The notes: generated from the letters alone by a model not told the origin. Positions 1 to 56,376 are shown, counted from the stretch's first letter. The stretch is 64,000 nucleotides of DNA from Candidatus Woesebacteria bacterium (GCA_020060565.1 JAGVAE010000002.1:85036-149035), one strand, 5' to 3'. Program-made: numbers and translations.

Positions 1-809
1 TTAATGAGGGTGTTCTCATTCTCAAAAAACCAAGGGTCAAACTTGAAAACTATATGATCGGGACTTCTATCGAGCTTGTTTGTTAATAAGTTGATAATTG
101 AAGTCTTGCCTTCTCCCCATTCTCCTTGTAAAGCAAAAACAAAAGGTGAGTTAAAAGGGAGGTTTGCTATTTGTGAGTGAAATTCATTGACAAAATCCCC
201 TCTGTCTAGAATATCCTCAGACTCTGTAGTTATGGGTTCGTCAGAAATGTCCTGGTCGAAATTTACAACACCCCTTTTATTTAAGACCTTTTTAAGTGGT
301 TTAAGTTTTACAACAATAAGACAAATCAGGTGGGCGAAATAAATGACAGCGAATGCTATAAAAAACGTAACAAAATATGGAAATATAAGGTTTTGTAATC
401 TTTCCCATTTTATTGAATCTATGTAATCTAGGTTTAAGAAATTAATATAAAGTATGAACAAGACAGCTGTAAACAAAATACTGGTTATTATGTTGTCGGG
501 GATGTTGTTGGTAGTCCTGATGTATCTGATACACATTTTGGAGCAGGGGGTGTATGCCACAACCCCACTGAAAAAGGTAAATAGAATTAATATTATTCCA
601 TAATTTGTGTGCCAGAGAGGGATATTTAAAACCAACCAAGAAAGAATTGCATTGACTATAATTTTACTCACAGAAAAATGGACAATAACATTTATCAATA
701 ATGCAAAAATATTAATTTTTACGACATAAAAGAGGGCATCTTTTAAACCCACCGTTGTGAATGAGGATGAGAATAATCTAAGAAGGTTTTTTGTTTTTTT
801 CCAGCCCAT
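1..809 (-). CDS. Membrane-anchored P-loop NTPase with a KAP-like Walker A; the C-terminus runs off the window.
   Basis: My translation of the minus strand from ATG 809..807 is open all the way to position 1. About 5 predicted TM helices are followed by a soluble region containing PFVFALQGEWGEGKTSIINLL, i.e. the GxWGxGKT/S Walker A typical of KAP NTPases. The ORF track omits it because it has no in-window stop. Confidence 0.45.
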   Translation of the reverse strand, partial: MGWKKTKNLLRLFSSSFTTVGLKDALFYVVKINIFALLINVIVHFSVSKIIVNAILSWLVLNIPLWHTNYGIILILFTFFSGVVAYTPCSKMCIRYIRTTNNIPDNIITSILFTAVLFILYINFLNLDYIDSIKWERLQNLIFPYFVTFFIAFAVIYFAHLICLIVVKLKPLKKVLNKRGVVNFDQDISDEPITTESEDILDRGDFVNEFHSQIANLPFNSPFVFALQGEWGEGKTSIINLLTNKLDRSPDHIVFKFDPWFFENENTLI

Positions 810-877
810 ATAAATATATAGGCAGTTCAGAGACAATTATAAGCTTATAAGAAGCATTTAACAAATTGGAATGAATC

Positions 878-1720
878 TTATATTTTGCAGTACTTATTTA
901 CGAATTCGTCAACAATTTTAGTTGCTTCTAAAAAGTATTGTTGAGAGATTGAGTCGGGTAATTCTATTGTTTTATTTACTACATCTAATGACATATTGTA
1001 TGCCTGAGAATCAATACCTTTTGGACAATAGTATTGTCTTAAATTGTGGGGAAGTGTTACTAAAACGAACTCTTGGTTATTTGTTTGTTGTAATTGTTGG
1101 CATTCTGTTTTTGATTTAATTTCCCAGTTTGTTCCTATCTGACAACACGTATACGATCCACTCTGACAGGCCTCTAGGCTTATTTTAATGCTTCTATTTT
1201 CGCACTTTGAACCAGTTGCACCTTTACAGTCTCCAATAAGTTTTTTCGGATCTGGAGTGGGTGTGGCGACAGGTTTTTTGGTGGGTATTGGAGTTGGGAA
1301 TAGAGTGGGGCTTGTGGGGGTTTCTAATTGAGGAGCTGGTGTTTGATTTGTGTTTGACTTTGCAAATGACATTATTCGAAGTTGTAATGTTGCCAAGATG
1401 ATAATGAACAATAAAATGGTTAAAATTAAAATTTTGGGGACACTAAGATTTTTTAAATATCTCGTAATATGTTGAAAGGATTTTTTATAGTTTGGAGGAT
1501 CTTTGATTAAGGTGTAAATGAGCCTAATAAATGCATACAAAATAGCCATTATGATTAGCAAGGGTAGAGGTAAAAAGAAGAGTGATATTTTCTCTGCCCA
1601 AATTGGGGAATTGTTATCCCCAGATATTAGTCGTGTGACCCAGAATAATATGTTTGTTCCAAATATGGAGACCACAACTGCTACAAGAGCGAATATAAAT
1701 TTGCTTCTAAGATTCTTCAT
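878..1720 (-). CDS. Hypothetical membrane protein with TM helices, a Pro/Thr-rich linker and a Cys-rich extracytoplasmic domain.
   Basis: 280-aa ORF. Hydrophobic N-terminal segments, a PTPTP-type linker and a C-terminal domain with about 9 Cys. Confidence 0.45.
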   Translation of the reverse strand: MKNLRSKFIFALVAVVVSIFGTNILFWVTRLISGDNNSPIWAEKISLFFLPLPLLIIMAILYAFIRLIYTLIKDPPNYKKSFQHITRYLKNLSVPKILILTILLFIIILATLQLRIMSFAKSNTNQTPAPQLETPTSPTLFPTPIPTKKPVATPTPDPKKLIGDCKGATGSKCENRSIKISLEACQSGSYTCCQIGTNWEIKSKTECQQLQQTNNQEFVLVTLPHNLRQYYCPKGIDSQAYNMSLDVVNKTIELPDSISQQYFLEATKIVDEFVNKYCKI

Positions 1721-1800
1721 AAAAAATTGGCCTTGAGGTGAGGCTAAAATTTGGTATCCTCGCCACAGCTATATTATGGCATACACGCCATAATTTTACT

Positions 1801-2010
1801 ATGTCGACATTAAATGAAAGGTTCGGGATCAATCTGATGGAATTAAGGAAGAAAAGCAGAATTTCTCAAATGGAGTTAGCAGAAAAATCGAAACTCGACT
1901 TAAAAACCATAAGTAATTTGGAGAATGGTATAAGACAGCCGGTTTTAAAAACAATTTGGAAATTGGCAAATGGTCTAAATGTCAGTATGTCCAAACTTCT
2001 AGATTTTTAA
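1801..2010 (+). CDS. XRE-family helix-turn-helix transcriptional regulator.
   Basis: The ORF is 1738..2010. The internal start MSTLNERFG precedes ISQMELAEKSKLDLKTISNLENG, a classic HTH_XRE motif. Confidence 0.6.
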   Translation: MSTLNERFGINLMELRKKSRISQMELAEKSKLDLKTISNLENGIRQPVLKTIWKLANGLNVSMSKLLDF

Positions 2011-2080
2011 TTATCTCCATTAGGTTATAAATAACGCCATCAAGATTTATACTGAATTCAGGAGTGGTAAGTAGTGGCAT

Positions 2081-2458
2081 ATGAAACAACCTAAATACAT
2101 AACAAAGAAACCTGAATATAGAATCCTCTTAGAGCTTATTAAGAAACACAAACTGTTTTTGTCTAAAGGTAAGGGTTATAACATCCAAGCTATCGTTAAA
2201 ACGCTCCACATTGACCCTAAAACGGCAAGAAAATGGCTAAATACACCCAAGGTTCAGGAAGCCATATCAGAAGAAATTGAATTTTATGTATCTAAGATGC
2301 AAGAAGTTGGGGCTACTGACTGGAAAATGTGGGCAAGACAGATAGAATTTGCATCAAAAAATAAAATGGAGGACTCAGAAGAGATGGGATCTAATGTGAT
2401 AATTATTAGAGATAAAGAGAAAGGCATATTTAGAATAACAGACGAACTACCAATTTAA
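2081..2458 (+). CDS. Hypothetical protein of the mobile element; small basic protein.
   Basis: 125-aa ORF with no motif I can assign. Confidence 0.35.
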   Translation: MKQPKYITKKPEYRILLELIKKHKLFLSKGKGYNIQAIVKTLHIDPKTARKWLNTPKVQEAISEEIEFYVSKMQEVGATDWKMWARQIEFASKNKMEDSEEMGSNVIIIRDKEKGIFRITDELPI

Positions 2459-2813
2459 CCCTTTCCTTTTTATTTGGTCCCATCTAGTACAGGTAGTGGT
2501 TAGAGATAAACCAATGGGTTTTTACCTGTTTTCTGGTGATTTTAATGAGCAATTTTATTCTTTCCAGCCTTGAGTAATAAAGGAAACTAGCAAATTGGTT
2601 ATAATTTTGACTTTTATACTTCATAATTTAAGTTATGTGCCAACAAACATACAAACAAAACAAGTGTAGCCAACTCTTTGAGCTGGTTGACAGATAAGTT
2701 ACGTGCAGAAATATCTTCAATTTTCAATCCCCGTTATGGTAGGAAGTTAACTCCTTTAGAAATTGACGAAATAGCAGAAAGTTTAACGTTGTTTACAGAA
2801 ACAATGACTGGAG

Positions 2814-3002
2814 GTGATTCCGATGGATAAAGTCGACCAAAAAACAACAAAACAGATAAAGATAGATGCCGGGTGGCATAGGTTGTTCAAAATCGCATCT
2901 GCAAAGGCTGGAGTGAGCATCAGGGAGCTTGTAGAGGCCTGTTTTGCTGATTCCCAGAAGAAAATTTGGAAAGAATATGGAATTGGAGCTGTCAATGAGT
3001 GA
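2814..3002 (+). CDS. Ribbon-helix-helix (CopG/Arc-like) small DNA-binding protein.
   Basis: 62 aa. The pattern KQIKIDAGWHRLFKIASAKAGVSIRELVEACF is a beta-strand followed by two helices. Confidence 0.4.
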   Translation: MIPMDKVDQKTTKQIKIDAGWHRLFKIASAKAGVSIRELVEACFADSQKKIWKEYGIGAVNE

Positions 3003-3348
3003 TTTTCAAAAAGCGAGCGAGGTGTTGAAAAAGAGTAACGATAATAACGTTAATAAATATAAATATAATAACGATAGTAACGTTAATGGTAAATACGCCT
3101 TGGATTTAAAAAAATTTACCCCAAATACCGAAGTGAGTGTTTTAGCCAAAGAAATAGCTGAAGATATGAACGATCTGGCCAACTTTGCTTGTTATCTGGA
3201 TGTTGTAAACAAATTGGGAGTACAAGGTGCAAGGGAGCATTGGAGATTAATCAAAAATGACATTTTGGAAAAATCAAAAACTAAAACCCCAGTCCGTTCG
3301 CCTAAAAAGTATTTTATGTATATGTTGAGAATGAAAGGTAGAAAATAA
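2995..3348 (+). CDS. Hypothetical protein translationally coupled to the upstream RHH gene.
   Basis: ATGAGTGA overlap with the RHH stop. N/K-rich 117-aa product (MSDFQKASEVL...). Confidence 0.3.
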   Translation: MSDFQKASEVLKKSNDNNVNKYKYNNDSNVNGKYALDLKKFTPNTEVSVLAKEIAEDMNDLANFACYLDVVNKLGVQGAREHWRLIKNDILEKSKTKTPVRSPKKYFMYMLRMKGRK

Positions 3349-3353
3349 TAGTA

Positions 3354-3382
3354 TTGACATTATCACAGAATGTATATATCAT
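3354..3382 (+). promoter_or_regulatory. Sigma70-like promoter candidate: TTGACA, 17-nt spacer, TATCAT.
   Basis: TTGACA at 3354..3359 and TATCAT at 3377..3382. The likely start codon at 3388 suggests a near-leaderless transcript. Confidence 0.3.
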
Positions 3383-3387
3383 ATATT

Positions 3388-3798
3388 ATGACTAAAATAT
3401 CTACGAGTGAGGCAACAAGAATTCTCGGAATAAATAAACAAACCCTATTTAGGTGGGAAAAAAGTGGATCACTACCAGCTGTTGAGAGAAAGGGTTTAAC
3501 TGAAGCACGTATGTACGATAAAGAGACGATAGAGGAGATTGCTATGTGGAGAAATCTCCGTAAAGAAGAAAAAGCACACCTAAGGAAACTTGGAAAAATT
3601 AGAGAAAAACTAGATAGTTATTTACCCACAAAGCCTCTTGATGCCTTTGAATCACCGAGAATGTTATCCCACGCAGAGTTTTTAGATATGAAAAAAGGGT
3701 ACGAAGATCTAAGAAAGTGGGAAAAGAAATTAGATGAAATTCAAGAAAGTTATTGGAGTTTTGCGAAAGATTATTTTGGAAAAAACTTTGATGAATAA
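3388..3798 (+). CDS. Excisionase/MerR-like HTH DNA-binding protein; possible recombination directionality factor.
   Basis: N-terminal MTKISTSEATRILGINKQTLFRWEKSGSLPAVER is an Xis/MerR-type HTH. It lies directly upstream of the recombinase, with an ATGAATAA overlap. Confidence 0.45.
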   Translation: MTKISTSEATRILGINKQTLFRWEKSGSLPAVERKGLTEARMYDKETIEEIAMWRNLRKEEKAHLRKLGKIREKLDSYLPTKPLDAFESPRMLSHAEFLDMKKGYEDLRKWEKKLDEIQESYWSFAKDYFGKNFDE

Positions 3799-5305
3799 TC
3801 AATCATTACAATATATTATTTATGCTAGAAAGTCGCAGGAAAATAAAGATAGGCAGGTGTTATCCATCGATTCCCAGATAACCGAGCTTCGTGAATTTGC
3901 TGACAAAAACAATCTCAATGTAGTTAAAGAATTTCAAGAAAGTCAGACTGCGTACAAAATTGGAAGACCTATTTTTGCAGAAATGATGGAACTTATTGAA
4001 ATGGGGGTTGCCAATGCAGTTTTAGTTTGGAAACCAGACAGACTTGCTAGAAACGCTATTGATGGAGGGAGGATCATACAGTCAATGGATGACAACTTAC
4101 TTCAAGAAATAAGAACTCCTTATGAAATTTTTCGACAAACAGACAATCGAATGATCGTTTACATATATTTTGGGATGAGCAATGACTATTCAAGACAAAT
4201 TAGTGCAAATGTAAAAAGGGGAAATAGGGAAAAATATAGACGCGGTGAATTTGTAGGAAAAGCACTTCTCGGTTATTTAAATGCTGATGTTGGAAATTCC
4301 AAAAATATAATTTTAGATCCACCTAAATCACAAATAGTGAAAAAACTTTTTGAAGAATACTCGGCAGGATTGTACTCGGTCATTGATATGGTCAAAAAGG
4401 CCGATGTATTGGGATTAAAAGGTATTTACGGAAATCCAATTGCCAAAAGTGGGATGTACAAACTTCTGAAAAATACAGCCTATTATGGTCTGTACAAACA
4501 CGGAGGAGAATATCATCAGGGAAGTTATGAACCTCTAATTTCGATAGATTTATTTAACAAAGTGCAGGATGTGCTAAAAAGTAAAGGGAAACCGAGAAAA
4601 TTTGGTTGGATAAATCACGCTTACAAAGCTAGATTGATTAAATGCGGTGAATGTGGGTGTTCAGTTACAGCTGAAACAAAGAGGAAATTTTATAAGACAA
4701 CAGGTAGGACAGGAATTTACACTTACTATCATTGTACAAAAAGGAGAGGTAAATGTTCGCAAAAGCCAGTATCTGAAGAGGAGATGGAGCAGATGTTGAG
4801 GAAATATGTTTACCGGATAGAGATAGATAAAGAGGTGTGGAATTTGGGCATTGAGTTGTTGAAGGCTAAACATAGTGGTGAGATAAAACAGTCAATTCTA
4901 AGTCGAAGGTTGATAGAAAAAGATTATGAAAAAGTTGACAGAGAACTAGAAAAACTTCTACAGCTTCGAATAGATCAAGAGATCACGGCAGAGGAGTACT
5001 CATCGAGTAAAAAAACACTAATGGATAAAAAGTTGTTAATTAAAGAAAAATTGGGTGATAGGGAACAAACCTCTAACAATTGGTTGGAACTTGCTGAAAA
5101 CTTCTTTGAAACTGCACTTCAGGCACGGAAAATTATGGAAGGTACGGATTTGCAAAGAAAGAGGGATTTGATTCAATCGGTCGGTTGGAACCTCCTTTTG
5201 AAGGATAAAAAACTCGATTTTAGCTTCAAAAAGCCCTATGACATACTACTAAAACCTGATGCACGTACTTCCGTGCAGAGGGGGAGGGATTTGAACCCTC
5301 GATAA
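3791..5305 (+). CDS. Large serine recombinase (integrase).
   Basis: N-terminal resolvase motif YARKSQENKDRQVLSIDSQ with a catalytic Ser, a recombinase domain, and a zinc-ribbon CGECGC...YYHC plus coiled-coil C-terminus. The 3' end overlaps tRNA-Ser(GGA) by 30 nt. Confidence 0.8.
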   Translation: MNNQSLQYIIYARKSQENKDRQVLSIDSQITELREFADKNNLNVVKEFQESQTAYKIGRPIFAEMMELIEMGVANAVLVWKPDRLARNAIDGGRIIQSMDDNLLQEIRTPYEIFRQTDNRMIVYIYFGMSNDYSRQISANVKRGNREKYRRGEFVGKALLGYLNADVGNSKNIILDPPKSQIVKKLFEEYSAGLYSVIDMVKKADVLGLKGIYGNPIAKSGMYKLLKNTAYYGLYKHGGEYHQGSYEPLISIDLFNKVQDVLKSKGKPRKFGWINHAYKARLIKCGECGCSVTAETKRKFYKTTGRTGIYTYYHCTKRRGKCSQKPVSEEEMEQMLRKYVYRIEIDKEVWNLGIELLKAKHSGEIKQSILSRRLIEKDYEKVDRELEKLLQLRIDQEITAEEYSSSKKTLMDKKLLIKEKLGDREQTSNNWLELAENFFETALQARKIMEGTDLQRKRDLIQSVGWNLLLKDKKLDFSFKKPYDILLKPDARTSVQRGRDLNPR

Positions 5306-5362
5306 CCTTGCGGTTATAGCCGATTTCCAATCGACCGCACTAGACCACTATGCGACCCCTCC
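5276..5362 (-). tRNA. tRNA-Ser (anticodon GGA), class II with a long variable arm.
   Basis: Cloverleaf folded by hand. Acceptor GGAGGGG/CCCCTCT (G1·T72 wobble), anticodon loop TTGGAAA, T-arm GAGGG-TTCAAAT-CCCTC. CCA is not encoded. Confidence 0.75.
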
Positions 5363-5377
5363 AGAATCTGTATTATA

Positions 5378-5869
5378 TCAAACAGAACCCTCAAGAAGCT
5401 CTTTGGCTTTTGTTAGCATTTGTTTTTCTCCTCCAAAAGAGAGTCTTTTTTTAGCATCTTCAAAAGATAGCCAAGCTATCTCTTCTGTTTCCCAATCAAA
5501 GCCTTCTGGTAAATCTTTTACATATTCCATTAAAAAGAATGTTACGAATTTTAAAATTTTTCCTCTTTGTGGATCTTTGAAAGAATACATTGAAGTTCCA
5601 ATTTTTTTAACTATCTTTGCCTCAACACCACCCTCTTCATTTACCTCTCTTATTGCAGCCATCTCAAGTGAGGTGGGGTCTGCTTTGATTAGTCCTTTAG
5701 CCATTGGCCCTGGTTGGTCACCATCCTCGTCATCCACTCTTCCTTTGGGAAGCATCCAGTATTGTTTTGGGTATAGTTCACTTTTAGAGGTTTTTCTAAC
5801 AAGCCAAAGTATTTTGTTTTTTTCTTTTTTAAAAACTACTCCCCCTGAAGAAAACTCTCTAGTGGTCAT
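5378..5869 (-). CDS. NUDIX hydrolase.
   Basis: Nudix box GRVDDEDGDQPGPMAKGLIKADPTSLEMAAIREVNEEGGVE. The start at MTTREF avoids overlap with the downstream gene. Confidence 0.65.
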   Translation of the reverse strand: MTTREFSSGGVVFKKEKNKILWLVRKTSKSELYPKQYWMLPKGRVDDEDGDQPGPMAKGLIKADPTSLEMAAIREVNEEGGVEAKIVKKIGTSMYSFKDPQRGKILKFVTFFLMEYVKDLPEGFDWETEEIAWLSFEDAKKRLSFGGEKQMLTKAKELLEGSV

Positions 5870-5874
5870 TGGGT

Positions 5875-6342
5875 TTAAAACATCACTACTTCTTGTTTTT
5901 TGAGGTTGTGTGTTTTTTCCCATTCTTTCAATACTTCTTTTGCTTCTTTTATTATATCCTTCTCTCTTTTGATACTTATTTTTTTAGCGGCATCTGCAAA
6001 ATCCAACCATTTAAATTGATCAAAACCTATAAGTTCACTGCTTCCACCTTTTTGAAGCATTAGATAATAATAAAACTTTTGGGGGATGGATTTGGCATTG
6101 ATTATGGTAGATCCTGTTGCACGCCCAGCCTCTTCCAATACTCTGGCAGCCATTCCACCTTGTTCACTGGCAAGTCTAATAACAGCACGAACAGAAGACT
6201 CTCCACGTCTAACGGTTACTTTTGGAATCTCCCAATCTGGATCGTCTTTTCCTTTAACCAGCAAAAATTGACGTTTACCACGGTTCTCTCTAAAAAGAAC
6301 TGCTCCTCCAATTACTATTTGTTGATTTTTGTTATTTTTCAT
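5875..6342 (-). CDS. NUDIX-like hydrolase with a divergent Nudix box.
   Basis: RRGESSVRAVIRLASEQGG approximates GX5EX7REUXEEXGU. It sits in tandem with the previous NUDIX gene. Confidence 0.5.
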   Translation of the reverse strand: MKNNKNQQIVIGGAVLFRENRGKRQFLLVKGKDDPDWEIPKVTVRRGESSVRAVIRLASEQGGMAARVLEEAGRATGSTIINAKSIPQKFYYYLMLQKGGSSELIGFDQFKWLDFADAAKKISIKREKDIIKEAKEVLKEWEKTHNLKKQEVVMF

Positions 6343-6373
6343 TTTATTTTGAACTCGTTTAAAAATCTTCGTG

Positions 6374-6461
6374 CGGTGGGGGCGAGATTCGAACTCGCGT
6401 GGATGAAATTCACCCCCAAGGTTTTCGAGACCTGGCAGATAAACCGCTCCTGCACCCCACC
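6374..6461 (-). tRNA. tRNA-Ser (anticodon CGA), class II.
   Basis: Acceptor GGTGGGG/CCCCACC, anticodon arm CAGGT-CTCGAAA-ACCTT, long variable arm, T-arm GCGAG-TTCGAAT-CTCGC. 88 nt. Confidence 0.75.
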
Positions 6462-6464
6462 TTG

Positions 6465-6539
6465 TGGTGCACCCACCCAGAATCGAACTGGGACCTAATC
6501 CTCCGCAAGGATCAACTCTATCCGTTAAGCTATGGGTGC
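6465..6539 (-). tRNA. tRNA-Arg (anticodon GCG as read).
   Basis: Acceptor GCACCCA/TGGGTGC is perfect, with an Arg-like D-arm GGATAGAG, anticodon loop TTGCGGA and T-loop TTCGATT. CCA is encoded. Confidence 0.65.
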
Positions 6540-6564
6540 CTTTCGACTCCGCTCAAGGTAAACT

Positions 6565-7143
6565 TTATTTATTCCCAGGCAATTTCTTAGAAACCCAGTT
6601 CGTAACTTTATCAAGTCCTGAGGCAGGTATTTCCTCAAATGGTATATAGGCAGAAATCTCATGCTTCAAACTATCTTTAATTTCAGGATTAATCATTACT
6701 TCAATTCTCCCTGGCATTAAAAATGTTTCAAAAATTAAGATTTCGCTTCCCGATCTTTCTCCAAACCAAAAACGAGACATTGCCTGCCACTCAGTTAGCT
6801 TACCTGCAATTTTTACTCCTTTAGACGTTATTTTATATTCAACATTCTCTGGCGGGACAGTTGAAAGAATGTAGTATAAAAATACTAAAGCTACAATCAA
6901 AATTACTGGCATTATTCCTTCTGCAAGAAAAAGAATCAGACTGATTATACCCGCAATTGCAAAAATTGTTGTATAAAACTGTCTGTCACGCCTCTTAAAT
7001 GGCCTTGCTGGTGCAATCCAAGTAAGAAGTTCACGCTCAGGTTCACGCCTGACAACCACAGCTTGCGGCTCAGAATTTAATGTACTTTCGGAACTAGATT
7101 TTTGATCTGTGGCAGGATCCATAATACGCGTATTATACCTCAA
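6565..7143 (-). CDS. Hypothetical membrane protein with two TM helices.
   Basis: 192-aa ORF containing hydrophobic segments FAIAGIISLILF and VILIVALVFLYYIL. No motif assigned. Confidence 0.4.
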   Translation of the reverse strand: MRYNTRIMDPATDQKSSSESTLNSEPQAVVVRREPERELLTWIAPARPFKRRDRQFYTTIFAIAGIISLILFLAEGIMPVILIVALVFLYYILSTVPPENVEYKITSKGVKIAGKLTEWQAMSRFWFGERSGSEILIFETFLMPGRIEVMINPEIKDSLKHEISAYIPFEEIPASGLDKVTNWVSKKLPGNK

Positions 7144-7170
7144 AAACTGATATAATTGCAGTGCCTAAAC

Positions 7171-7254
7171 GGAGAGCATGCCGAACGGCTAAGGCAACAT
7201 CCTGCTAAGATGTGTCGCGAAAGCGACTGGTGAGTTCGACTCTCACGCTCTCCG
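7171..7254 (+). tRNA. tRNA-Ser (anticodon GCT), class II.
   Basis: Acceptor GGAGAGC/GCTCTCC, 3-bp D-stem, anticodon arm ACATC-CTGCTAA-GATGT, long variable arm, T-arm GTGAG-TTCGACT-CTCAC. Confidence 0.75.
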
Positions 7255-7258
7255 CACT

Positions 7259-7343
7259 GGTGGGTGGGCAGGACGGTAATGCGCGAGTCTTGAAAACTCG
7301 TGAGCGTAAGCTCTAACAGGTTCGACCCCTGTACCCACCGCCA
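7259..7343 (+). tRNA. tRNA-Ser (anticodon TGA), class II; CCA encoded.
   Basis: Acceptor GGTGGGT/ACCCACC, anticodon arm CGAGT-CTTGAAA-ACTCG, long variable arm, T-arm ACAGG-TTCGACC-CCTGT. This is the integration site of the mini-island. Confidence 0.8.
7304..7341 (+). repeat. Left 38-bp direct repeat (attL-like), corresponding to the 3' half of tRNA-Ser(TGA).
   Basis: GCGTAAGCTCTAACAGGTTCGACCCCTGTACCCACCGC is identical to 8205..8242. Confidence 0.8.
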
Positions 7344-7362
7344 ACTTTTTTATCCAATAAAT

Positions 7363-8196
7363 ATGAATACTTACAAAGGCGATATTATTGAAGAATCTTT
7401 GAGTGATAAAGACATTCTCAAAGACATAAATATAATCTCAACCAGGGTCGAAAAGGTGACAAAAGAGCATCAAACGCCGTGGCTTTCTCAATGGACCTTG
7501 GACACGATCGAGGTTAACGATAGTCAATCTGACAATTTAGCTAAAAGTTTAAGCAAAGCCCTTGATTCTAAACATGGCTGGTATATTGATTATCGTAATG
7601 ACAAATATCATTATGTGATTTTTAAAAACAGAGTTTTCAAACTGGATCGTAGTAAAAAATCTGACTATGAAAAAATGATTAAATATGGATTGTCTGTGGG
7701 TACACCAGATTACCAGTTGCCAAACTTTTCTAATTTACCAATTGATGTTTTAGACACTTTTTTGAGAGAAGCGAATTTAAATACTTACGCCAACGAGAAT
7801 GTCAAAAGAGTGTCTTCGCTTCGTCCTGGTTCTAACGATTATCATTTCAAAAAAGGTGACCTAACTTATCATGACACCTATTTTGGTGCCACTAAATTTA
7901 TTGGTGAAGAAATTGTTTATAAAGGTAGTAAAGCCACATGGGGTATGAATTACTATGGTTTTACTGTTAGTAATCAAATAAGTGAGAGTTTGTTTGACGC
8001 GATTTTGCGTCCAGCTTTAATGGCAGGCTCTGGTGATAATATACCAGTTCGTGGACCAAAAGAGTTTATAAACGGCAAATGGAAATATACATTTAAAGCC
8101 GATGGTGACTTGGCAAACTTTACAGGAATAGAGGAAGTTTCTAAAAACGGTAAAGTGATTAGTCGGTTATATTGCCATGGTGGATTCATCGAATGA
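7363..8196 (+). CDS. Hypothetical protein; sole cargo of the tRNA-Ser(TGA) mini-island.
   Basis: 277-aa ORF. The ORF-track start at 7300 would overlap the tRNA, so ATG 7363 is preferred. No catalytic motif recognised; the C-terminal half (WGMNYYGFTV...GKWKYTF) looks beta-rich. Confidence 0.5.
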   Translation: MNTYKGDIIEESLSDKDILKDINIISTRVEKVTKEHQTPWLSQWTLDTIEVNDSQSDNLAKSLSKALDSKHGWYIDYRNDKYHYVIFKNRVFKLDRSKKSDYEKMIKYGLSVGTPDYQLPNFSNLPIDVLDTFLREANLNTYANENVKRVSSLRPGSNDYHFKKGDLTYHDTYFGATKFIGEEIVYKGSKATWGMNYYGFTVSNQISESLFDAILRPALMAGSGDNIPVRGPKEFINGKWKYTFKADGDLANFTGIEEVSKNGKVISRLYCHGGFIE

Positions 8197-8204
8197 ACCG
8201 AAAT

Positions 8205-8242
8205 GCGTAAGCTCTAACAGGTTCGACCCCTGTACCCACCGC
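8205..8242 (+). repeat. Right 38-bp direct repeat (attR-like); a duplicated tRNA-Ser(TGA) 3' fragment.
   Basis: Exact copy of 7304..7341 lying immediately after the stop of the 7363..8196 gene. Confidence 0.8.
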
Positions 8243-8243
8243 A

Positions 8244-8849
8244 TTATTTTGCAATAGTTAACCAAAAGATTCTTTTTACACCCGCTTTTCTTAAAGTTTT
8301 TGAGGCCTCACTGAGAGTGGAGCCAGTTGTGAGAACATCATCAAAAAGAATTAGCGGATAGCGATTAGTGATTAGCGAATAGTTAGAACTAAGAGAGAAG
8401 ACACCTTTTAAATTCTCATGGCGAGTACTACCTTTAAGCCCAACCTGGGGCTTGGTTGAAACTTTTTTAATTAGTAAATTGGGTTCATATTTCCAATTCA
8501 TTTCGCGTGCTACCAGTTTCCCAATCTCTTCTGCTTGATTAAATCCCCTAACATTTTGTTTGTGCCAATGGAGTGGAATAGGAATTAGTAAATAGTTCTT
8601 ATTAATTAGATTTGTTGATTTCAAGTTTCTGACACAAATATCTGCCAGCTCTTTTGCAACTTCTGTTGTGTATTTGTACTTAAGGGCAATAATTGCTTTC
8701 CTTATTACTCCTTCGTATCTAAAAATGGAGAGTTTGTCTTTGGCGAATCCAACCTTTCTGACTTTTTTCAAGCAGCTTTCACAAATATATTTTCCCTCCT
8801 TGCCACACTCAAGGCAGGCTTTGGGAAAGAATAAATCAAGAATTCCCAT
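8244..8849 (-). CDS. comF: ComF-family phosphoribosyltransferase-domain protein (ComFC-like).
   Basis: N-terminal zinc finger CLECG...CESC and C-terminal PRT motif LILFDDVLTTGSTL. The ORF-track N-terminal extension would overlap the tmRNA, so the start is placed at MGILDLFF. Confidence 0.6.
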   Translation of the reverse strand: MGILDLFFPKACLECGKEGKYICESCLKKVRKVGFAKDKLSIFRYEGVIRKAIIALKYKYTTEVAKELADICVRNLKSTNLINKNYLLIPIPLHWHKQNVRGFNQAEEIGKLVAREMNWKYEPNLLIKKVSTKPQVGLKGSTRHENLKGVFSLSSNYSLITNRYPLILFDDVLTTGSTLSEASKTLRKAGVKRIFWLTIAK

Positions 8850-8867
8850 AAAGGCAGTTTTTGTCTG

Positions 8868-9235
8868 CGGAGACGGTGGGAATTGAACCCACGTCCGAAA
8901 ATACTTAATACAAAACTTACTACAAGCTTGTTTGGTTTTTGAATTTTCATCGAGCTTATCCAACCAACAGGAACGCTCGATGTAAGATTTATTTGTCTTT
9001 TGTTTAAGCCTTTAAATCGTTAAAGCTCAAACAGCATCTCTAACGGGTTAATGCCCATTTGATTCGGTAGAGAATCAAACCAAAGGACACCGATTAAGCA
9101 AAGGCTAAATTATAGCCTTGGTAATCAGAAGCTGGACTTGCGTCTGCTTTTATTTTTTAACTCTGTTTAACGAGTATGGGTTAAACTCGGCTTGCAGTTT
9201 TGTTAAAGAGCTTCCCGTCGAAACCGATCGTCTCC
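8868..9235 (-). ncRNA. ssrA: tmRNA (ssrA).
   Basis: Lies immediately downstream of smpB. 5' GGAGACG pairs with 3' CGTCTCC as a tRNA-like acceptor, and the 3' T-arm is GGGTTCAATTCCC. The internal tag ORF GCAGACGCA...GCTTAA encodes ADASPASDYQGYNLAFA. ~368 nt. Confidence 0.7.
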
Positions 9236-9238
9236 AGG

Positions 9239-9661
9239 TTATTTTAGCTCAAGATCAATATCCCTTTGGATATCAACCTTCTTTTGAGCTTCCTTCTTCT
9301 CAAACACGCGTTTACTCTTGGCCAAGGCTAGCTCAAGCTTAATTAAACGCCGTTTAGTATACACGCTTACAGGCACGAGAGTCAACTTTTTTTGCTTGGT
9401 TTTAGTCAAAAGATCTAATATTTGGCCCTTATGTAAAAGGAGTTTTCTTGAAGCTGTTGGTTCATAGTATCTTTTATTGGGAACGGGTATGTTTGCGTTG
9501 ACCAAATAGGCTTCTTTATTGATTATTTTTACAAACGAGCCTGTTAGGTTTATATGTCCCGTTCGAACCGCACGGGCCTCGCCTCCTGTTAGGGAGATTC
9601 CAGCCTCAGTGGTCTCAAGAATCTGGTAATCAAACTTGGCTCTTTTATTAACAATCTTCAT
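9239..9661 (-). CDS. smpB: SsrA-binding protein SmpB.
   Basis: 140 aa with conserved SmpB features (KFDYQILETTEAGISLTGGE...) and a basic C-terminal tail. Confidence 0.85.
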   Translation of the reverse strand: MKIVNKRAKFDYQILETTEAGISLTGGEARAVRTGHINLTGSFVKIINKEAYLVNANIPVPNKRYYEPTASRKLLLHKGQILDLLTKTKQKKLTLVPVSVYTKRRLIKLELALAKSKRVFEKKEAQKKVDIQRDIDLELK

Positions 9662-11493
9662 TTAATCTCCATTGAGTATAACTTATCTCCGGTTAGAAGA
9701 ATTATTTTCTTGTCTGTTTCACTTGCCACCAGGGTTATTGCTGATGAGATAAGATCGTCTACATATTGAGCTTTATAGACTCCTTTTTTGTCTGTAACCA
9801 CTACTCTTTTGCCCGCTCTGTCCAACAGATAAATATATTGATTATCAGGGTTTCCGTAAATAGCATTTACACTGCCTATCTCCGGAAAAGTCCCCTTAAT
9901 ATTAAAATTTTGAGAACTTCCCTGACTGAATTTTTGTATGCGGGAATTCGGGTAAAGTGCGTAGATCGACCCATCGATAGTAATTTGAACAACGTCTGAA
10001 AAATCTACATTAGTTCCCGCCGCCAGCCAATTCTGCTTTTCTCCAAAACCAGTACTATTTCCTGCATATCTATATATTTGATTTCCTGATTTATCTAATA
10101 AATACATGTTTCCTGCAAAAGCTGATATTAGGGCGTCTCCCGACCATGTTTTTTCTATAACTTTATTGTTTCCAGAATCCACTTGATAAACCCCATCACT
10201 TTCAAGTACAAAAACATTGTCTTCATATGCTGCAAGTGCTTGTGCTGAGTTCACTACTCCAGGACCTGCAACTACTTTGCTTTTTTTTGTTGAGGATTCA
10301 ACACTTACTATCCTTTGTCCTGATTTATCTAGTACATAGATTAAACCTCCCGAAAAAGACACCGCGTCACCTTTAAAACCCGACGAAAGAAGTGTTAGAT
10401 CTAAAAACATTTCAGGAGAGGCTTTGTATTCTCCCAAAACAGCCGCCCTACTGTCATCCATTTTTTTCTTTAAAGAATCTATCTCTGGATCTTTTACATT
10501 CAAGTTTTCAATTTGTTTTAATTTTTGTTCACCTGAGGCAAAAAGCTCCCTGCTTCTTTCACTGCTCACACTGGCAAGGCTTATAGCTTGTTCAACATCG
10601 TTTTGTGCTTGCTCTAATATTCCTCTATATTTATTCTTTGTGTCATTGATGCTTTTTTGTCTAATTCCAAATCCAATACTAACCGCAAGAAGACCTAAAA
10701 GAATTGCTGCTATAGTAAATGTCATTTTTTTACTTTGGGGGGAAATTTCCTCAGGGGAATCTACTTTTAAATAAATATTTCTTTTTGGAATTTTTTTAAG
10801 CAAGTCTGTAAAAAAATTACTTTTGGGAATAGTTGGTTTTATTATCTGCTCTTGGGGGACTGTTGTTTCTAATCTTTCTTCAAATTTAATTATTGCTGCA
10901 CCTAAGTTTCCCGGGCTTTGGGCTCCAAGGGCAATTGGACCGAGTGTCTCAATAGAATCTTCTGGGGCTGGAGCAGAAAGTGCGGCTTTGATAACTCCTT
11001 GGGAAACTATTTGAAAAAAAGATTTTGTAGCTAAAAGAATTACATCACCATTCCTTGGGTAACCAGAAGCAGTTATTACTTGATCGGCACCACTTTCCAA
11101 GATTTTTCCCAAAGCCCCTTCTCTAAAGACCATTACACTTGCTCCCCCAACAGCAGCTGAATAAACAACATTGTCTACAAATGAGGCTGCCACTATTTCT
11201 ACATCTCCCCATGTTTGACGAAATTCATCAGCTACTTTTTGAGTAGCATCCCTTAAAACATTAAAGGGTTTTCCCTCGAGCTTTCCGTAATACTCTTCAT
11301 GGTACCTTGTTAGAAGTTCTCGTCCCGCGGTAATAGTATCAATTCCACTTTCTGTATGGTTTGTTGAAACAATTACAAAAAGGTGTCCCCTAAGTTTAAG
11401 TTTATCTGGATCATCGGGAGTAAATTCATGTACCTGAGCCCAACCCGAATTACCAGGAGGTCCTGTGAGTTTTGAAGCACTCTGAATTAGCAT
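9658..11493 (-). CDS. Membrane protein with an N-terminal PP2C-like domain (canonical metal-binding residues apparently substituted), one TM helix, a coiled coil and C-terminal beta-propeller-like repeats.
   Basis: VVYSAAVGGASVMVFREG and GDVILLATKSFFQIV align to PP2C motifs (vAnvGDSRavl / gD.lllaSDGlwd) but lack the GDSR/DG residues. Repeated YVLDKSG / YLLDKSGNQIYRY / YLLDRAGKRVVV motifs are present. Confidence 0.4.
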   Translation of the reverse strand: MLIQSASKLTGPPGNSGWAQVHEFTPDDPDKLKLRGHLFVIVSTNHTESGIDTITAGRELLTRYHEEYYGKLEGKPFNVLRDATQKVADEFRQTWGDVEIVAASFVDNVVYSAAVGGASVMVFREGALGKILESGADQVITASGYPRNGDVILLATKSFFQIVSQGVIKAALSAPAPEDSIETLGPIALGAQSPGNLGAAIIKFEERLETTVPQEQIIKPTIPKSNFFTDLLKKIPKRNIYLKVDSPEEISPQSKKMTFTIAAILLGLLAVSIGFGIRQKSINDTKNKYRGILEQAQNDVEQAISLASVSSERSRELFASGEQKLKQIENLNVKDPEIDSLKKKMDDSRAAVLGEYKASPEMFLDLTLLSSGFKGDAVSFSGGLIYVLDKSGQRIVSVESSTKKSKVVAGPGVVNSAQALAAYEDNVFVLESDGVYQVDSGNNKVIEKTWSGDALISAFAGNMYLLDKSGNQIYRYAGNSTGFGEKQNWLAAGTNVDFSDVVQITIDGSIYALYPNSRIQKFSQGSSQNFNIKGTFPEIGSVNAIYGNPDNQYIYLLDRAGKRVVVTDKKGVYKAQYVDDLISSAITLVASETDKKIILLTGDKLYSMEIK

Positions 11494-14147: not shown

Positions 14148-14540
14148 ATGAAGAAGTTTATATTTAGTATTATTTTTGTTTCTGCATTTATATTTTTGAA
14201 TACTTTGATTTCGCCAAAGGTCTCTATGGCTGCTGATGTTCATGGGGGCTGTGGAGATACAGAGATTGATACAGCCATTGGCTGTGTTCCTGTATTGGGT
14301 GATGGAACAAGTGATTTTATGACTTTTATTCTTAGGTGGGCAATTGGTGTTGGGGGTGGAATTGCTTTTCTTTTGATTCTTTATGCAGGTTTTATGACAA
14401 TGACTTCAGCAGGTAATCCAGAAAGACTTAAGGCGGGGCAAGAATTATTAACAAGTGCCATCTCTGGTCTGATTCTTTTGATATTGTCCGTATTTGTTCT
14501 AAACTTTATAGGAATCAATATTTTAGGTATATTTACATAA
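14148..14540 (+). CDS. VirB2/TrbC-like propilin candidate, paralog 1; the only one with a classical signal peptide.
   Basis: 130 aa. Signal peptide (…PKVSMA), a Cys pair, then TM1, loop TSAGNPERLKAGQELLTSAISG and TM2. Confidence 0.5.
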   Translation: MKKFIFSIIFVSAFIFLNTLISPKVSMAADVHGGCGDTEIDTAIGCVPVLGDGTSDFMTFILRWAIGVGGGIAFLLILYAGFMTMTSAGNPERLKAGQELLTSAISGLILLILSVFVLNFIGINILGIFT

Positions 14541-14873
14541 ATGAAAATAGCATTAGAGAGTCCTTATAAAGGTATTAGCGTTCCTTCAAGTGGTGGAAAA
14601 ATAAATGTAAACGAAACTGATATTGGAGGTATTATTACTGGAGTTTTGCCATATATCTTTGGTGCAGCTGCAATTTTACTTTTAATTTATTTAGTTACAG
14701 CAGGTCTTTCCATGATGCTTTCTCGGGGAGAACCAAAAACAATGCAGGCAGCACAAGCAAAAATAACCAATGCTTTGATCGGATTTGTTATTGTATTTTT
14801 TGCGTTTTCTTTAGTACTTCTTGTTGGAAATATTCTTGGAGTTAATGTTTTTGAAGACATATTTAAAAAATAA
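14541..14873 (+). CDS. VirB2/TrbC-like propilin candidate, paralog 2.
   Basis: 110 aa. ~40-aa leader, then TM1, loop SRGEPKTMQAAQAKITNALIG and TM2. Abuts paralog 1 (TAAATG). Confidence 0.5.
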   Translation: MKIALESPYKGISVPSSGGKINVNETDIGGIITGVLPYIFGAAAILLLIYLVTAGLSMMLSRGEPKTMQAAQAKITNALIGFVIVFFAFSLVLLVGNILGVNVFEDIFKK

Positions 14874-15193
14874 TGAAAAATCTTGCATTAAATATTAAGG
14901 ATTCTTTTTTTGGTAATCAGGGAGCGTCTTCTTTTCAAACAATTACTGGGGTTTCTGATATTGTTTCTTTATTTCTCAAAATTTCTTTTGTCCTGGCAGG
15001 TTTAATTCTTCTTTTCTATTTTATCTTGGGTGGAATTGGAATGATTGGGAGTGCTGGAAAAAATGATCCAAAAGCGGCTGAACAGGCCAAGCAAACCATA
15101 ACATCGGCTGTTATTGGGTTTGTTGTTGTGTTTGTAGCCTATTGGATAGTAAAATTGATTGGAATATTGTTTAATATTCCAAATATTATTTAA
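14873..15193 (+). CDS. VirB2/TrbC-like propilin candidate, paralog 3.
   Basis: 106 aa. Loop SAGKNDPKAAEQAKQTITSAVIG between two TM helices. ATGA overlap with paralog 2. Confidence 0.5.
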   Translation: MKNLALNIKDSFFGNQGASSFQTITGVSDIVSLFLKISFVLAGLILLFYFILGGIGMIGSAGKNDPKAAEQAKQTITSAVIGFVVVFVAYWIVKLIGILFNIPNII

Positions 15194-15547
15194 ATGCAAA
15201 AACTACTCGCAGATAATGTCTTTGGCACAATTAAAGCACCAGATTCTGCATTTAAGGACAGTGCTACTCCCCAAGCAGCCATTGGAAACTTAATTCAGCT
15301 TGTAATCTGGATTCTTATAATTGGCGCTGGGATCTATGCATTGTTTAATTTGGTTTTGGCTGGCTATTCTTTTATGTCAGCAGGAGATGATAGTAAAAAA
15401 GTTAGTGGAGCCTGGGCTATGATTTATCAAACAATGATCGGCTTGGCTGTTGCTGCAGGATCCTTTGTGCTGGCAGCCATCTTTGGACAGTTGATATTTG
15501 GCAAATGGGATTTTATCCTTAACCCAACAATTCCAACATTACAATAA
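15194..15547 (+). CDS. VirB2/TrbC-like propilin candidate, paralog 4.
   Basis: 117 aa. Loop SAGDDSKKVSGAWAMIYQTMIG between two TM helices. Confidence 0.45.
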   Translation: MQKLLADNVFGTIKAPDSAFKDSATPQAAIGNLIQLVIWILIIGAGIYALFNLVLAGYSFMSAGDDSKKVSGAWAMIYQTMIGLAVAAGSFVLAAIFGQLIFGKWDFILNPTIPTLQ

Positions 15548-15548
15548 A

Positions 15549-15923
15549 ATGAATAATTTACTGACAGATATTAAATTGGCACCAGAGAGTGGTTTTAGGG
15601 GTTTTGGTCAGTTGGGACTTGAAGGTTTAAGTGAAGAAAGTGCGGGTACGACATTCAACACCTTTGTTTCAACTGCCATAGGTGTAATGACCATCATTGC
15701 TTTTGTGTGGTTTGTTTTTACACTTTTTGTTGGGGCTTACGGATTTATGACTGCAGGAGGGGATAAACAGGCTCTCGAGTCTGCAAAGAAAAAAATAACT
15801 ACAGGAATAATAGGTGTCGTTATTGTAATTGCCGCCATTTTCATATTCCAACTTGTGGGGTATATACTTGGAATACCAAATATTCTTAATCCTGGGGAAA
15901 TGATTAGACAAATCAGTCAATAA
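15549..15923 (+). CDS. VirB2/TrbC-like propilin candidate, paralog 5.
   Basis: Start at MNNLLTDIK, 1 nt after the stop of paralog 4. Loop TAGGDKQALESAKKKITTGIIG. Confidence 0.5.
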   Translation: MNNLLTDIKLAPESGFRGFGQLGLEGLSEESAGTTFNTFVSTAIGVMTIIAFVWFVFTLFVGAYGFMTAGGDKQALESAKKKITTGIIGVVIVIAAIFIFQLVGYILGIPNILNPGEMIRQISQ

Positions 15924-15924
15924 T

Positions 15925-16326
15925 ATGTTTATTACAAACCTTCTATTAGCACAGGGCGATATCCCTGAGGGGTGGAATGGCCCAGCAAAAGGATCTGAAA
16001 TAAAAAACCCCGCTTTAGGAAACACCTTAAACGGACTTCTTCAAGAGGGTGGTTCCGCGTTTTTTGGAACCCTAATACCAAATCTTATTGGAATCTGTTA
16101 TGTAATTGGGGTAGTTATCTTTCTTTTTATGCTTATTACAGGTGCTATTCAATGGATAAGCTCCGGTGGAGACAAACAAGCATTAGAGTCAGCAAGGAAT
16201 AAAATATCAAATGCTTTGGTAGGAATTGTAATTTTGTTTGCTGTGTTTGCAATTATAAATCTAATTGAAACGTTTTTTGGTATAAATATTATGACCCTTG
16301 ACATGGGGGCTTTAGTAATTCAATAA
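15925..16326 (+). CDS. VirB2/TrbC-like propilin candidate, paralog 6.
   Basis: 133 aa. Loop SSGGDKQALESARNKISNALVG between two TM helices. Confidence 0.5.
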   Translation: MFITNLLLAQGDIPEGWNGPAKGSEIKNPALGNTLNGLLQEGGSAFFGTLIPNLIGICYVIGVVIFLFMLITGAIQWISSGGDKQALESARNKISNALVGIVILFAVFAIINLIETFFGINIMTLDMGALVIQ

Positions 16327-25674: not shown

Positions 25675-25675
25675 A

Positions 25676-32690: not shown

Positions 32691-32897
32691 TTTGACGGTT
32701 TTTTGGTTTGGTGTTTCATATTATATATTAAACAGTAGTACTAGTAGTAGTCAGTGTTGATAAGTTGATAAAAACTTAAGTTTAGAATTAAGATTCGGGA
32801 CATATTAGTGTTTACATTGAGCATAGTGAAATGTTGATAAAGTTGTGGATAATTCTGAGATACCTGTTGATAAGTTTGTACTTCTTATCTTTTATCC
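32691..32897. promoter_or_regulatory. Candidate oriC: a DnaA-box cluster plus an AT-rich unwinding region in the dnaA-dnaN spacer.
   Basis: Perfect TGTGGATAA at 32844..32852. Near-boxes TGTTGATAA at ~32755, 32833 and 32867, and TTATCCTCA at 32891. AT-rich ATATTATATATTAAA. Confidence 0.55.
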
Positions 32898-56293: not shown

Positions 56294-56304
56294 TTTGTTT
56301 GATG

Positions 56305-56376
56305 AGGCCACGACCAGAATCGAACTGGTGCATAACTGTTTTGCAGACAGTCGTGTTTCCTCTTCACCACGTGGCC
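56305..56376 (-). tRNA. tRNA-Cys (anticodon GCA).
   Basis: Acceptor GGCCACG/CGTGGCC, anticodon arm ACTGT-CTGCAAA-ACAGT, T-arm ACCAG-TTCGATT-CTGGT. 72 nt, CCA not encoded. Confidence 0.75.

Follow-up and report, generated by a model that had tools for sequence, protein, structure and literature searches.

A 64,000-nucleotide stretch of a Candidatus Woesebacteria contig (GCA_020060565.1, JAGVAE010000002.1:85036-149035; hereafter the window) contains a single protein-coding gene lodged between an intact serine tRNA gene and a second copy of the 3′ end of that tRNA gene. All coordinates given here are positions in the whole window, and L-numbers denote the contigs or genomes of relatives with which it was compared. 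The intact gene, tRNA-Ser(TGA) (7259..7343, plus strand), was identified by ARAGORN, scored 45.2 bits against the Rfam tRNA model, and appears to have been the target of an integration. It is preceded by tRNA-Ser(GCT) (7171..7255, plus strand; ARAGORN), the first gene of a two-tRNA unit that stands ahead of the island and is retained in all relatives (L004-L007, L097, L099, L100, and L104).

The 3′ part of tRNA-Ser(TGA), 38 nt running up to the first C after the discriminator (7304..7341, plus strand; the attL core), recurs as a displaced tRNA 3′ fragment at 8205..8242 on the same strand (the attR core). The copies are identical at 38/38 nt and spaced 901 nt apart, and together they form the longest direct repeat in the window. 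The repeated segment corresponds to tRNA positions 46-83, comprising part of the variable arm, the T arm, the 3′ acceptor strand, the discriminator G, and the first C, and ends 2 nt short of the encoded CCA end. When the 38-mer was searched for with up to three mismatches, exactly two copies were found in 64 kb, with 0 expected from 100 shuffles. A sequence-only reading of this stretch had proposed a perfect 38-bp repeat bracketing one 277-aa gene; a repeat search of the window and ARAGORN reproduced this exactly, with the refinement that the repeat stops short of the final CA of the tRNA. That reading had also named a larger segmental duplication as an alternative origin of the repeat. Identity stops exactly at both repeat borders, and no such larger duplication is present.

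Between the repeat copies lie 21 nt, one open reading frame (ORF), and 8 nt. The left non-coding end (7342..7362, plus strand; CAACTTTTTTATCCAATAAAT) is too short for a promoter of its own and is homologous to the 22-nt left end of the island in L095. The ORF (7363..8196, plus strand) encodes a 277-aa cargo protein with an N-terminal α/β domain, a linker helix, and a DUF5680 domain, and its homologues all begin at an ATG that matches the start of the window ORF. The right non-coding end (8197..8204, plus strand; ACCGAAAT) has homologous counterparts of 8-9 nt in L015, L095, and L096. No ORF other than the cargo gene was found inside the island, and neither a recombinase nor an integrase lies between the repeats, just as the sequence-only reading had it. 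Terminal inverted repeats were not found at the island ends and the duplication is 38 nt long, so the island does not have the form of an insertion sequence, a miniature inverted-repeat transposable element, or a transposon. Its G+C content (0.33-0.40) resembles that of its neighbours, and no atypical composition was seen. The cargo gene is single-copy in the window; an ORF at 55478-56311 that was considered as a paralogue, also of 277 aa and also beside a tRNA, proved to be unrelated.

The right chromosomal flank is a comF-family gene (8244..8849, minus strand), convergent with the tRNA, whose product gave weak Pfam matches to DZR_2 and PRTase and has homologues that are named ComF by their sources. 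The attR core lies 1 nt from the comF stop codon, the same place as that occupied by the real tRNA end in relatives with an empty site. A promoter scan gave no site between the tRNA and the cargo ATG. Upstream of the tRNA pair, a sigma-70-like match (7109..7136, plus strand; 9/12 matches) was returned by the same type of scan, in which the count of promoter-like sites was not above that of shuffles. The cargo gene is likely transcribed by read-through from the tRNA-Ser(GCT)/tRNA-Ser(TGA) unit, possibly from this match. A tRNA-like or terminator role for the right-hand fragment was considered and dropped, since folds of 8170-8245 and 8197-8245 were no better than those of shuffles (z = -1.7 and -1.4, respectively) and no terminator-like site was present.

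The neighbourhoods of related genomes were gathered in three ways: by a ComF search in species-representative genomes, from the context of ComF homologues, and from the context of homologues of the 185/192-aa protein encoded left of the tRNA pair. The closest named relatives of ComF and of the neighbouring proteins belong to Candidatus Woesebacteria and Microgenomates, of the candidate phyla radiation (CPR). The host is an uncultured, ultra-small member of this radiation. The common gene order is SmpB/transfer-messenger RNA (tmRNA), comF, tRNA-Ser(TGA), tRNA-Ser(GCT), the 185-aa gene, tRNA-Arg(GCG), tRNA-Ser(CGA), two NUDIX genes, and tRNA-Ser(GGA). Eight relatives have no DUF5680 gene at the tRNA-Ser(TGA)/comF junction. 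The distance from the tRNA-Ser(TGA) 3′ end to the comF stop codon is 1 nt in L097/L098, L099, L100, and L104/L106, 3 nt in L006, and 226-400 nt in L004, L005, and L007.

Comparison of the window with L099 by blastn gave two collinear blocks, with a 38-nt overlap on the L099 side and a gap of 864 nt on the window side; relative to the closest empty-site relative, the window carries a clean 863-nt insertion together with a 38-nt target duplication. The empty site (L099, L097, and L006; alignment A1) equals the left flank of attL, the core, and the right flank of attR, including the flank ATTATYTTGC from the comF stop region. The right-hand repeat copy therefore holds the ancestral position of the tRNA end, and the working tRNA has been shifted by 901 nt. 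The empty sites bear out the attL/attR-like insertion at the tRNA-Ser(TGA) 3′ end that the sequence-only reading had put forward, and they dispose of the further alternative raised there, that the gene might be universally present at this position. The native tRNAs of the empty-site relatives finish in ACCGC followed by AT, with no encoded CCA, whereas the window tRNA finishes in ACCGCCA; the final CA of the window tRNA is therefore island sequence. As judged from the aligned sequences, this geometry is that of the integration of an element carrying a mimic of the tRNA 3′ end.

That the repeat is an assembly artefact or a product of chance is extremely improbable. The window does derive from a metagenome-assembled contig, and tRNA ends are prone to repeats, but zero chance matches are expected and the junction of gene, fragment, and comF recurs in independent assemblies of three further samples (L015, L095, and L096).

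Among the relatives, tRNA-Ser(TGA) at this locus occurs as three very different sequence types. Type A (the window, L099, L100, L004, L006, and L007) has an unusual D region, with the anticodon placed by ARAGORN at position 29-33; types B (L005 and L102) and C (L097) look canonical. The wider cluster at 5275-7343 comprises four serine isoacceptor tRNAs (GGA, CGA, GCT, and TGA) and tRNA-Arg(GCG) within 2.1 kb, and is kept in all relatives examined. It shows another presence/absence polymorphism, a gene of 334-343 aa with helix-turn-helix (HTH) and LAGLIDADG_3 (homing-endonuclease-like) domains between tRNA-Ser(GCT) and the 185-aa gene, which is present in L097 (8810-9814), L098, L102 (190-1221), L103, and L104 (5901-6908) and absent from the window, L099, and L100.

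The same cargo gene occupies the same site in three other contigs (L015, L095, and L096), in which the right junction is homologous to that of the window, with 8-9 nt after the stop codon followed by the tRNA fragment. In L096, the fragment and comF are separated by a gene for a small membrane protein. At the amino acid level, ComF of the window is 82.7% identical to that of L015, 82.6% to that of L095, and 76.7% to that of L096; the four carriers share 74-83% ComF identity among themselves, compared with 63-71% to the empty-site relatives L097, L099, and L100 (the three closest compared). Since the four carriers fall together by this measure, the simplest history is a single insertion in the ancestor that they share. 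The gene is thus not universal at the site but fixed in a clade of four related genomes, a distribution more in keeping with an old relic that is now largely immobile than with a mini-element that still hops actively. The cargo shows 92-94% amino acid identity, as opposed to 70-88% identity at four-fold sites. On this comparison the cargo is under purifying selection. Given the decayed or mismatched right-hand fragments of the other three carriers and the exchange of the gene by homologous recombination (both described below), the island looks old, mostly vertically inherited, and not freshly mobile.

The tRNA fragment of L015 differs from the repeat by four changes, including one deletion, and in L095 and L096 similarity is gone in the first 8-10 nt of the fragment. 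The outer 30 nt of all fragments vary only at acceptor-stem positions at which functional alleles also vary, (A/G)CC(C/T)ACC, a pattern for which simple decay does not account. Any one of three processes would explain both this pattern and the perfect 38 nt of the window: conversion of the fragment by the tRNA gene, re-integration on repeated occasions, or selection acting on the fragment. L095, L102, and L096 derive from samples SRR22388165 and SRR22387906. L102 comes from the same sample as L095 (SRR22388165) and overlaps it by 30 nt; its working tRNA is complete but of another sequence type, like that of Woesebacteria L005. The tRNA type of the L095+L102 genome differs from that of its fragment, and there is therefore no repeat there at all. 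The break between these two Logan contigs, at the start of L095 and the end of L102, coincides exactly with the last 30 nt of the pre-island tRNA, a k-1 overlap, which means that the assembly graph branches at that node. Filled and empty alleles existing side by side, or several variants of the tRNA within the population, could underlie this branch.

The island gene is 98.4% identical at the nucleotide level between L095 and L096 (96% at four-fold sites), compared with 80% (73%) for comF. Between the window and L015 the corresponding values are 93.8% (88%) for the island gene and 81% (70%) for comF. A recent transfer of the whole island, suggested at one point by the 98% gene identity of L095 and L096 against 80% for comF, was withdrawn, as a sliding comparison of the two contigs revealed a 100% identical block that lies inside the ORF and fades before the right end of the island. 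Confinement of this block to the ORF therefore points to homologous recombination among carriers and not to movement of the unit. Recombination is also apparent next to comF. The SmpB/tmRNA module (8867-9661 in the window, compared with L096, L097, and L100) exists as two deeply divergent alleles, with SmpB at ∼54% amino acid identity and opposite orientations relative to comF; the tmRNA tag peptides are ADASPASDYQGYNLAFA versus AISKK...QVAIA or AKSYDSAPAYAGNFAFA. The genomes with divergent SmpB/tmRNA alleles have flanking genes that are 87-95% identical, and the region is, from these comparisons, a local mosaic made by recombination.

These observations raise the question of whether the window lineage experienced any site-specific event. 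It may instead have received the whole block of tRNA, island, and fragment by homologous recombination (natural transformation), with the tRNA genes and comF as homology arms and with the perfect repeat arising from later gene conversion. The mosaic character of the region is consistent with such an acquisition, given SmpB/tmRNA alleles that are 54% identical and inverted among genomes with neighbouring genes at 87-95% identity, and so are the island genes of the L095-L096 and window-L015 pairs, which are far closer at synonymous sites than comF and have break points inside genes. The L095+L102 genome, in which a type-B tRNA is paired with a type-A fragment, and the ComF encoded in the neighbourhood fit equally well. 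This route would, however, merely move the origin of the duplication to another genome, where some process would still have had to duplicate the 38 nt and supply the CCA in the first place; a donor with identical flanks did not come to light, and we judge wholesale acquisition of this kind to be rather unlikely.

The conserved cargo protein was assigned to the Pfam family DUF5680 (PF18931) through residues 171-276, with an E-value of 2.6e-26, a score of 92.5 bits against a cut-off of 25, and coverage of profile positions 1-104 of 104. A Pfam scan of residues 1-170 assigned nothing. In the AlphaFold2 model (pLDDT 88.9), the N-terminal α/β domain occupies residues ∼1-115 and is followed by the linker helix and by DUF5680 at 171-276. 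The remote-homology and structure prediction proposed in the sequence-only reading accordingly yielded a domain and a model but no match to a solved structure: NCBIfam, PHROG, PADLOC (none at E ≤ 1), and a PDB sequence profile gave no cargo match, and the fold matches of the model were weak and pointed toward ligand-binding folds, not nucleases or recombinases.

The cargo has 1095 homologues, full-length examples of which are numerous in CPR metagenomes at 70-86% identity and occur at ∼50% in Bacilli and Clostridia. An exhaustive search returned 1,413 clusters at 50% identity, most of which consist of the N-terminal module alone (∼120 aa) or the C-terminal module alone (∼155 aa), with some fused to other domains; the 277-aa two-domain architecture is a minority form in the DUF5680 family. 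At most loci, the DUF5680 gene is translationally coupled to a 66-aa XRE HTH_3 gene, whose stop codon overlaps the ATG, and is followed by a gene for a 326-aa protein with a sub-threshold HhH-GPD match. Many His, Asp, Glu, and Tyr residues are invariant in the cargo family. No function of DUF5680 is known from the literature, in which the only paper with the term uses DUF5680 as a feature in a machine-learning set. We tentatively suggest that the cargo is a small-molecule-binding or regulatory partner of an XRE repressor and not a recombinase.

A defence function, for which the sequence-only reading had considered the cargo a candidate, was set aside: there was no PADLOC or PHROG match and no viral contig match, and the flanking genes are tRNAs and comF. 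A phage or satellite origin was likewise rejected, since PHROG gave no match, no viral contig encodes a relative of the cargo, and none of those in IMG/VR contains the tRNA-proximal 31 nt of the att core.

A single recombinase was identified in the window, a large serine recombinase (LSR) of 523 aa (3734..5305, plus strand), with Pfam matches to Resolvase, Recombinase, and Zn_ribbon_recom and a PHROG integrase match at E = 8e-72. A hidden tyrosine integrase was considered and rejected, as no tyrosine recombinase or integrase was found among the ∼35 window ORFs scanned with Pfam. The end of the LSR gene overlaps by 31 nt the 3′ end of tRNA-Ser(GGA) (5275..5362, minus strand; ARAGORN). In relatives (L097, L099, and L100), Exo_endo_phos-DnaG-RpoD lies directly after tRNA-Ser(GGA), and the LSR is therefore part of a separate island (1-5362) that continues beyond the left edge of the window. 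The other genes of that island encode a MerR/excisionase-like protein (3370-3798), an HTH protein (2081-2458), an XRE protein (1738-2010), and a 280-aa membrane protein (878-1720, minus strand), together with an ORF that runs off the left edge and that we take, from its GEWGEGKTS motif, to be KAP-type NTPase-like.

Mobilisation of the cargo island by this LSR, offered as an example in the sequence-only reading, found no support in closer comparison. The enzyme is associated with another tRNA, the 38-nt core and the LSR junction at the tRNA-Ser(GGA) 3′ end are alike in the T loop only, and the tRNA-Ser(GGA) end is not seen a second time in the window; as a trans-acting enzyme for the cargo island, the LSR is a candidate by proximity only, 2 kb away. 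The link of this LSR family with tRNA ends is itself real: homologous LSRs, 34% identical over their full length, abut tRNA-Pro(GGG) in L001 and L021 beside DUF5680 operons. In L021, the 3′ coding end of the LSR gene that abuts tRNA-Pro forms perfect inverted repeats (85 + 47 nt) on either side of the gene (3739-3896 and 5398-5525), and it is possible that the segment is invertible, swapping the recombinase C terminus. In the homologous LSR unit of L001, the inverted repeat is degraded (130 nt, 72%) and is accompanied by a direct repeat of 28 nt (7775-7802 and 9650-9677).

The rest of the window looks chromosomal. The segments 14148-16326, 24634-28229, and 31575-34271 hold an array of small membrane proteins resembling type IV secretion system pilins, PrgI- and TraG/VirB4-like genes, and dnaN-dnaA; the position of dnaN-dnaA (31575-34271, minus strand) indicates that the window adjoins the replication origin.

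DUF5680 genes lie directly behind same-strand tRNAs at 5/54 non-redundant loci, in addition to the window and the pseudo-tRNA case L068, a frequency several-fold above a rough expectation of ≤3-4%. In L050, the 277-aa gene begins 16 nt after tRNA-Pro(GGG). The module of XRE (66 aa), DUF5680, and 326-aa protein is preceded by a homologous GC-rich, hairpin-containing leader in L018 (5469-6000), L020 (1227-1686), and L021 (5560-6000), and in L018 and L020 this leader follows immediately on the CCA of tRNA-Lys(CTT) and tRNA-Leu(TAA), respectively, and in L021 it comes after the LSR unit beside tRNA-Pro(GGG). Either the XRE-DUF5680 module moves between tRNA sites or tRNAs have been swapped in front of the module.

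A second DUF5680 mini-island, of 742 nt, is present in L068 (5789-6558) and also in L064. It is flanked by a 27/28-nt direct repeat, which begins 2 nt beyond tRNA-Leu(CAG) and is a duplicate of the 3′ end of a convergent 593-aa gene; the islet contains a degraded tRNA-Leu(TAA) copy, which ends in CCA and is 90% identical to the tRNA 4.7 kb away, together with a 163-aa DUF5680-only ORF. In L030 (4734-5930; also L031), a 1.09-kb islet with one gene (peptidase S51, 219 aa) and a 13-15-nt repeat of the tRNA-Ser(GCT) end sits between tRNA-Ser(GCT) and a truncated XRE-DUF5680 module, and a further T-arm-like fragment lies near 5790-5830. Around the larger XRE-DUF5680 modules and the other tRNA-adjacent copies, no tRNA-derived repeats were found above background except in L030. 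Small integrase-less islets at tRNA ends recur in these CPR genomes, and their repeats are unrelated in sequence.

Two unrelated repeat-flanked islets, those of the window and of L064/L068, thus share this gene family only, and the family is enriched behind tRNAs and has many invariant His, Asp, Glu, and Tyr residues. These properties would suit a self-mobilising single-gene element in which the DUF5680 protein itself inserts the unit, as an unrecognised DNA-breaking and DNA-joining enzyme that makes long target duplications by tRNAs. Such an activity is nevertheless very improbable. Most loci are ordinary XRE-DUF5680-HhH-GPD-like operons without repeats, the L068 copy lacks the N-terminal domain, and both domains are found alone or fused to unrelated enzymes; in addition, the weak fold matches are not to nucleases or recombinases, and the same kind of islet in L030/L031 carries a peptidase S51 gene as cargo.

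Mobility in trans was weighed separately. The unit could be an active non-autonomous cassette, 901 bp long (core plus ORF), that still excises as a circle and re-integrates in tRNA-Ser(TGA) by means of the neighbouring LSR or another tRNA-abutting LSR. The perfect att-like repeats of the window are what such activity would leave, and an LSR that overlaps a tRNA-Ser 3′ end lies 2 kb away, with homologues abutting tRNA-Pro beside DUF5680 genes (L001 and L021), one of them in a unit flanked by the 28-nt direct repeat (L001). The second DUF5680 mini-island with its 28-nt repeat (L064/L068) and the frequency of DUF5680 genes behind same-strand tRNAs (the 5/54 loci, the window, and L068) point the same way, as does the outer part of the fragments, which varies only where functional tRNA alleles do, as expected if it is host-derived. 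We nonetheless regard an active cassette as unlikely, given that the filled sites form one clade and that recent exchange maps within the gene and not at the island borders. The LSR's own target, the tRNA-Ser(GGA) 3′ end, shares little with the 38-nt core beyond the T loop, the unit turned up at no locus but this one, no circle junction came to light, and the repeats of L068 and the window are unrelated in sequence.

A more general form of the same idea, which we hold to be decidedly improbable, is that sub-kilobase single-ORF cassettes (DUF5680 or peptidase S51) at or near tRNA 3′ ends, with 13-38-nt repeats, are served in trans by tRNA-overlapping LSRs, making up an integron-like system of CPR (Microgenomates-type) genomes with tRNA ends as the platform. 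Were this so, both components would be represented in the window, the cassette by the cargo gene with its intact att sites and the recombinase by the LSR island 2 kb off.

The explanation that we favour, and consider probable, is that the island is an integrase-less relic of site-specific integration at the tRNA-Ser(TGA) 3′ end, resembling a cis-mobilizable element (CIME): one integration in the ancestor of the clade, retention for a useful cargo, and reshuffling by homologous recombination. In this model, a small circular or larger element with a copy of the tRNA 3′ end finishing in CCA would have recombined with the chromosomal tRNA, such that element sequence now completes the working tRNA and the original 3′ end has been pushed 901 nt downstream, where it still abuts comF. 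The remnant would be the 863 nt now seen, with one promoterless ORF that is probably transcribed by read-through from the tRNA pair. Insertion would have occurred in or before the ancestor of a small Microgenomates/Woesebacteria-like CPR clade, followed by vertical inheritance and shuffling through homologous recombination, and the repeats of the window would be identical still, or identical again by way of gene conversion. Since the repeats are identical, loss of the island by a RecA-type or recombinase-mediated event would regenerate precisely the ancestral junction. The expected restored empty junction would have the tRNA 5′ half ahead, run to ...CCTGTACCCACCGC, and continue directly with ATTATTTTGCAATAG; the expected circle junction would read ...CATCGAATGAACCGAAAT, the 38-nt core, and then CAACTTTTTTATCCAATAAATATG.

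Several observations weigh against the relic model. No integrase, excisionase, or arm-type sites could be recognised, so that the term site-specific is taken from the geometry and from nothing else. If the insertion dates back to the origin of the clade, a neutral 38-nt fragment would be expected to have accumulated differences, as those of L015, L095, and L096 have, and the identity in the window needs gene conversion, recent re-integration, or selection. The L095+L102 genome, with its type-B tRNA and type-A fragment, requires one more recombination event, whichever model is adopted. The larger XRE-DUF5680 modules behind other tRNAs are without tRNA-derived repeats, and no parental element with this att core was found. 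Of the core, for which the sequence-only reading had advised a search beside integrases elsewhere in the genome, the 64-kb window holds only the two copies at this locus, and the 31-nt tRNA-proximal part is absent from IMG/VR contigs.

If the relic model is correct, the island is a documented example of very small genomes keeping a useful foreign gene while shedding the machinery that delivered it. It would also identify the tRNA-Ser cluster of this CPR lineage as a hot spot of recombination and give a handle on DUF5680, a widespread family that is usually coupled to XRE and is found repeatedly behind tRNA genes. The practical value is modest, in that a candidate short att pair and a nearby LSR may provide a genetic tool for organisms that now have none.

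Compared with known systems, the cargo resembles Pfam DUF5680 proteins in that its C-terminal domain matches the full model above the gathering score, and differs from them by its extra N-terminal domain. The island as a whole is reminiscent of integron gene cassettes, with one promoterless ORF, a minimal non-coding margin, and one short recombination-site-like sequence, and it would similarly need a trans-acting recombinase and an upstream promoter. It differs in having no attC-type imperfect palindrome, IntI, attI, or array, and in having a tRNA end as its site; neither an attC site nor an IntI/attI platform was found, there was no tyrosine recombinase among the ORFs scanned, and the window contains no cassette array. 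LSR integrative elements offer a further parallel through the LSR island 2 kb away at another tRNA-Ser. Short att sites (∼40-50 bp) suffice for LSRs, which need no host factors, so that a sub-kilobase substrate is mechanistically conceivable. LSR att sites usually share few central bases, unlike the 38-nt core.

Classical tRNA-gene islands and prophages of the tyrosine-integrase type are 10-100 times larger than the window island and have the integrase gene, arm-type sites, and compositional signature that it lacks. The two are alike in the use of a tRNA 3′ end as target, the rebuilding of the tRNA by the element, the displaced fragment at the far end, and the existence of empty sites in relatives. 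The window provides two hallmarks of a tRNA-integrated island, namely a repeat of the tRNA 3′ part with one copy in an intact tRNA and an empty site equal to the left flank of attL, the core, and the right flank of attR. CIMEs, as the definition is worded in a passage of PMC5704250, keep their att sites and are devoid of recombination genes. Described CIMEs are several kb in size, occur in Firmicutes, and are demonstrably derived from integrative and conjugative elements or integrative and mobilizable elements, in contrast to an island of 0.86 kb with one ORF in a CPR genome for which no parental element was found. The window island nonetheless shares with them attL/attR-type repeats of the target gene 3′ end, retained intact here and decayed in L015, L095, and L096, the absence of integration and transfer genes, and a position at which related elements could integrate alongside.

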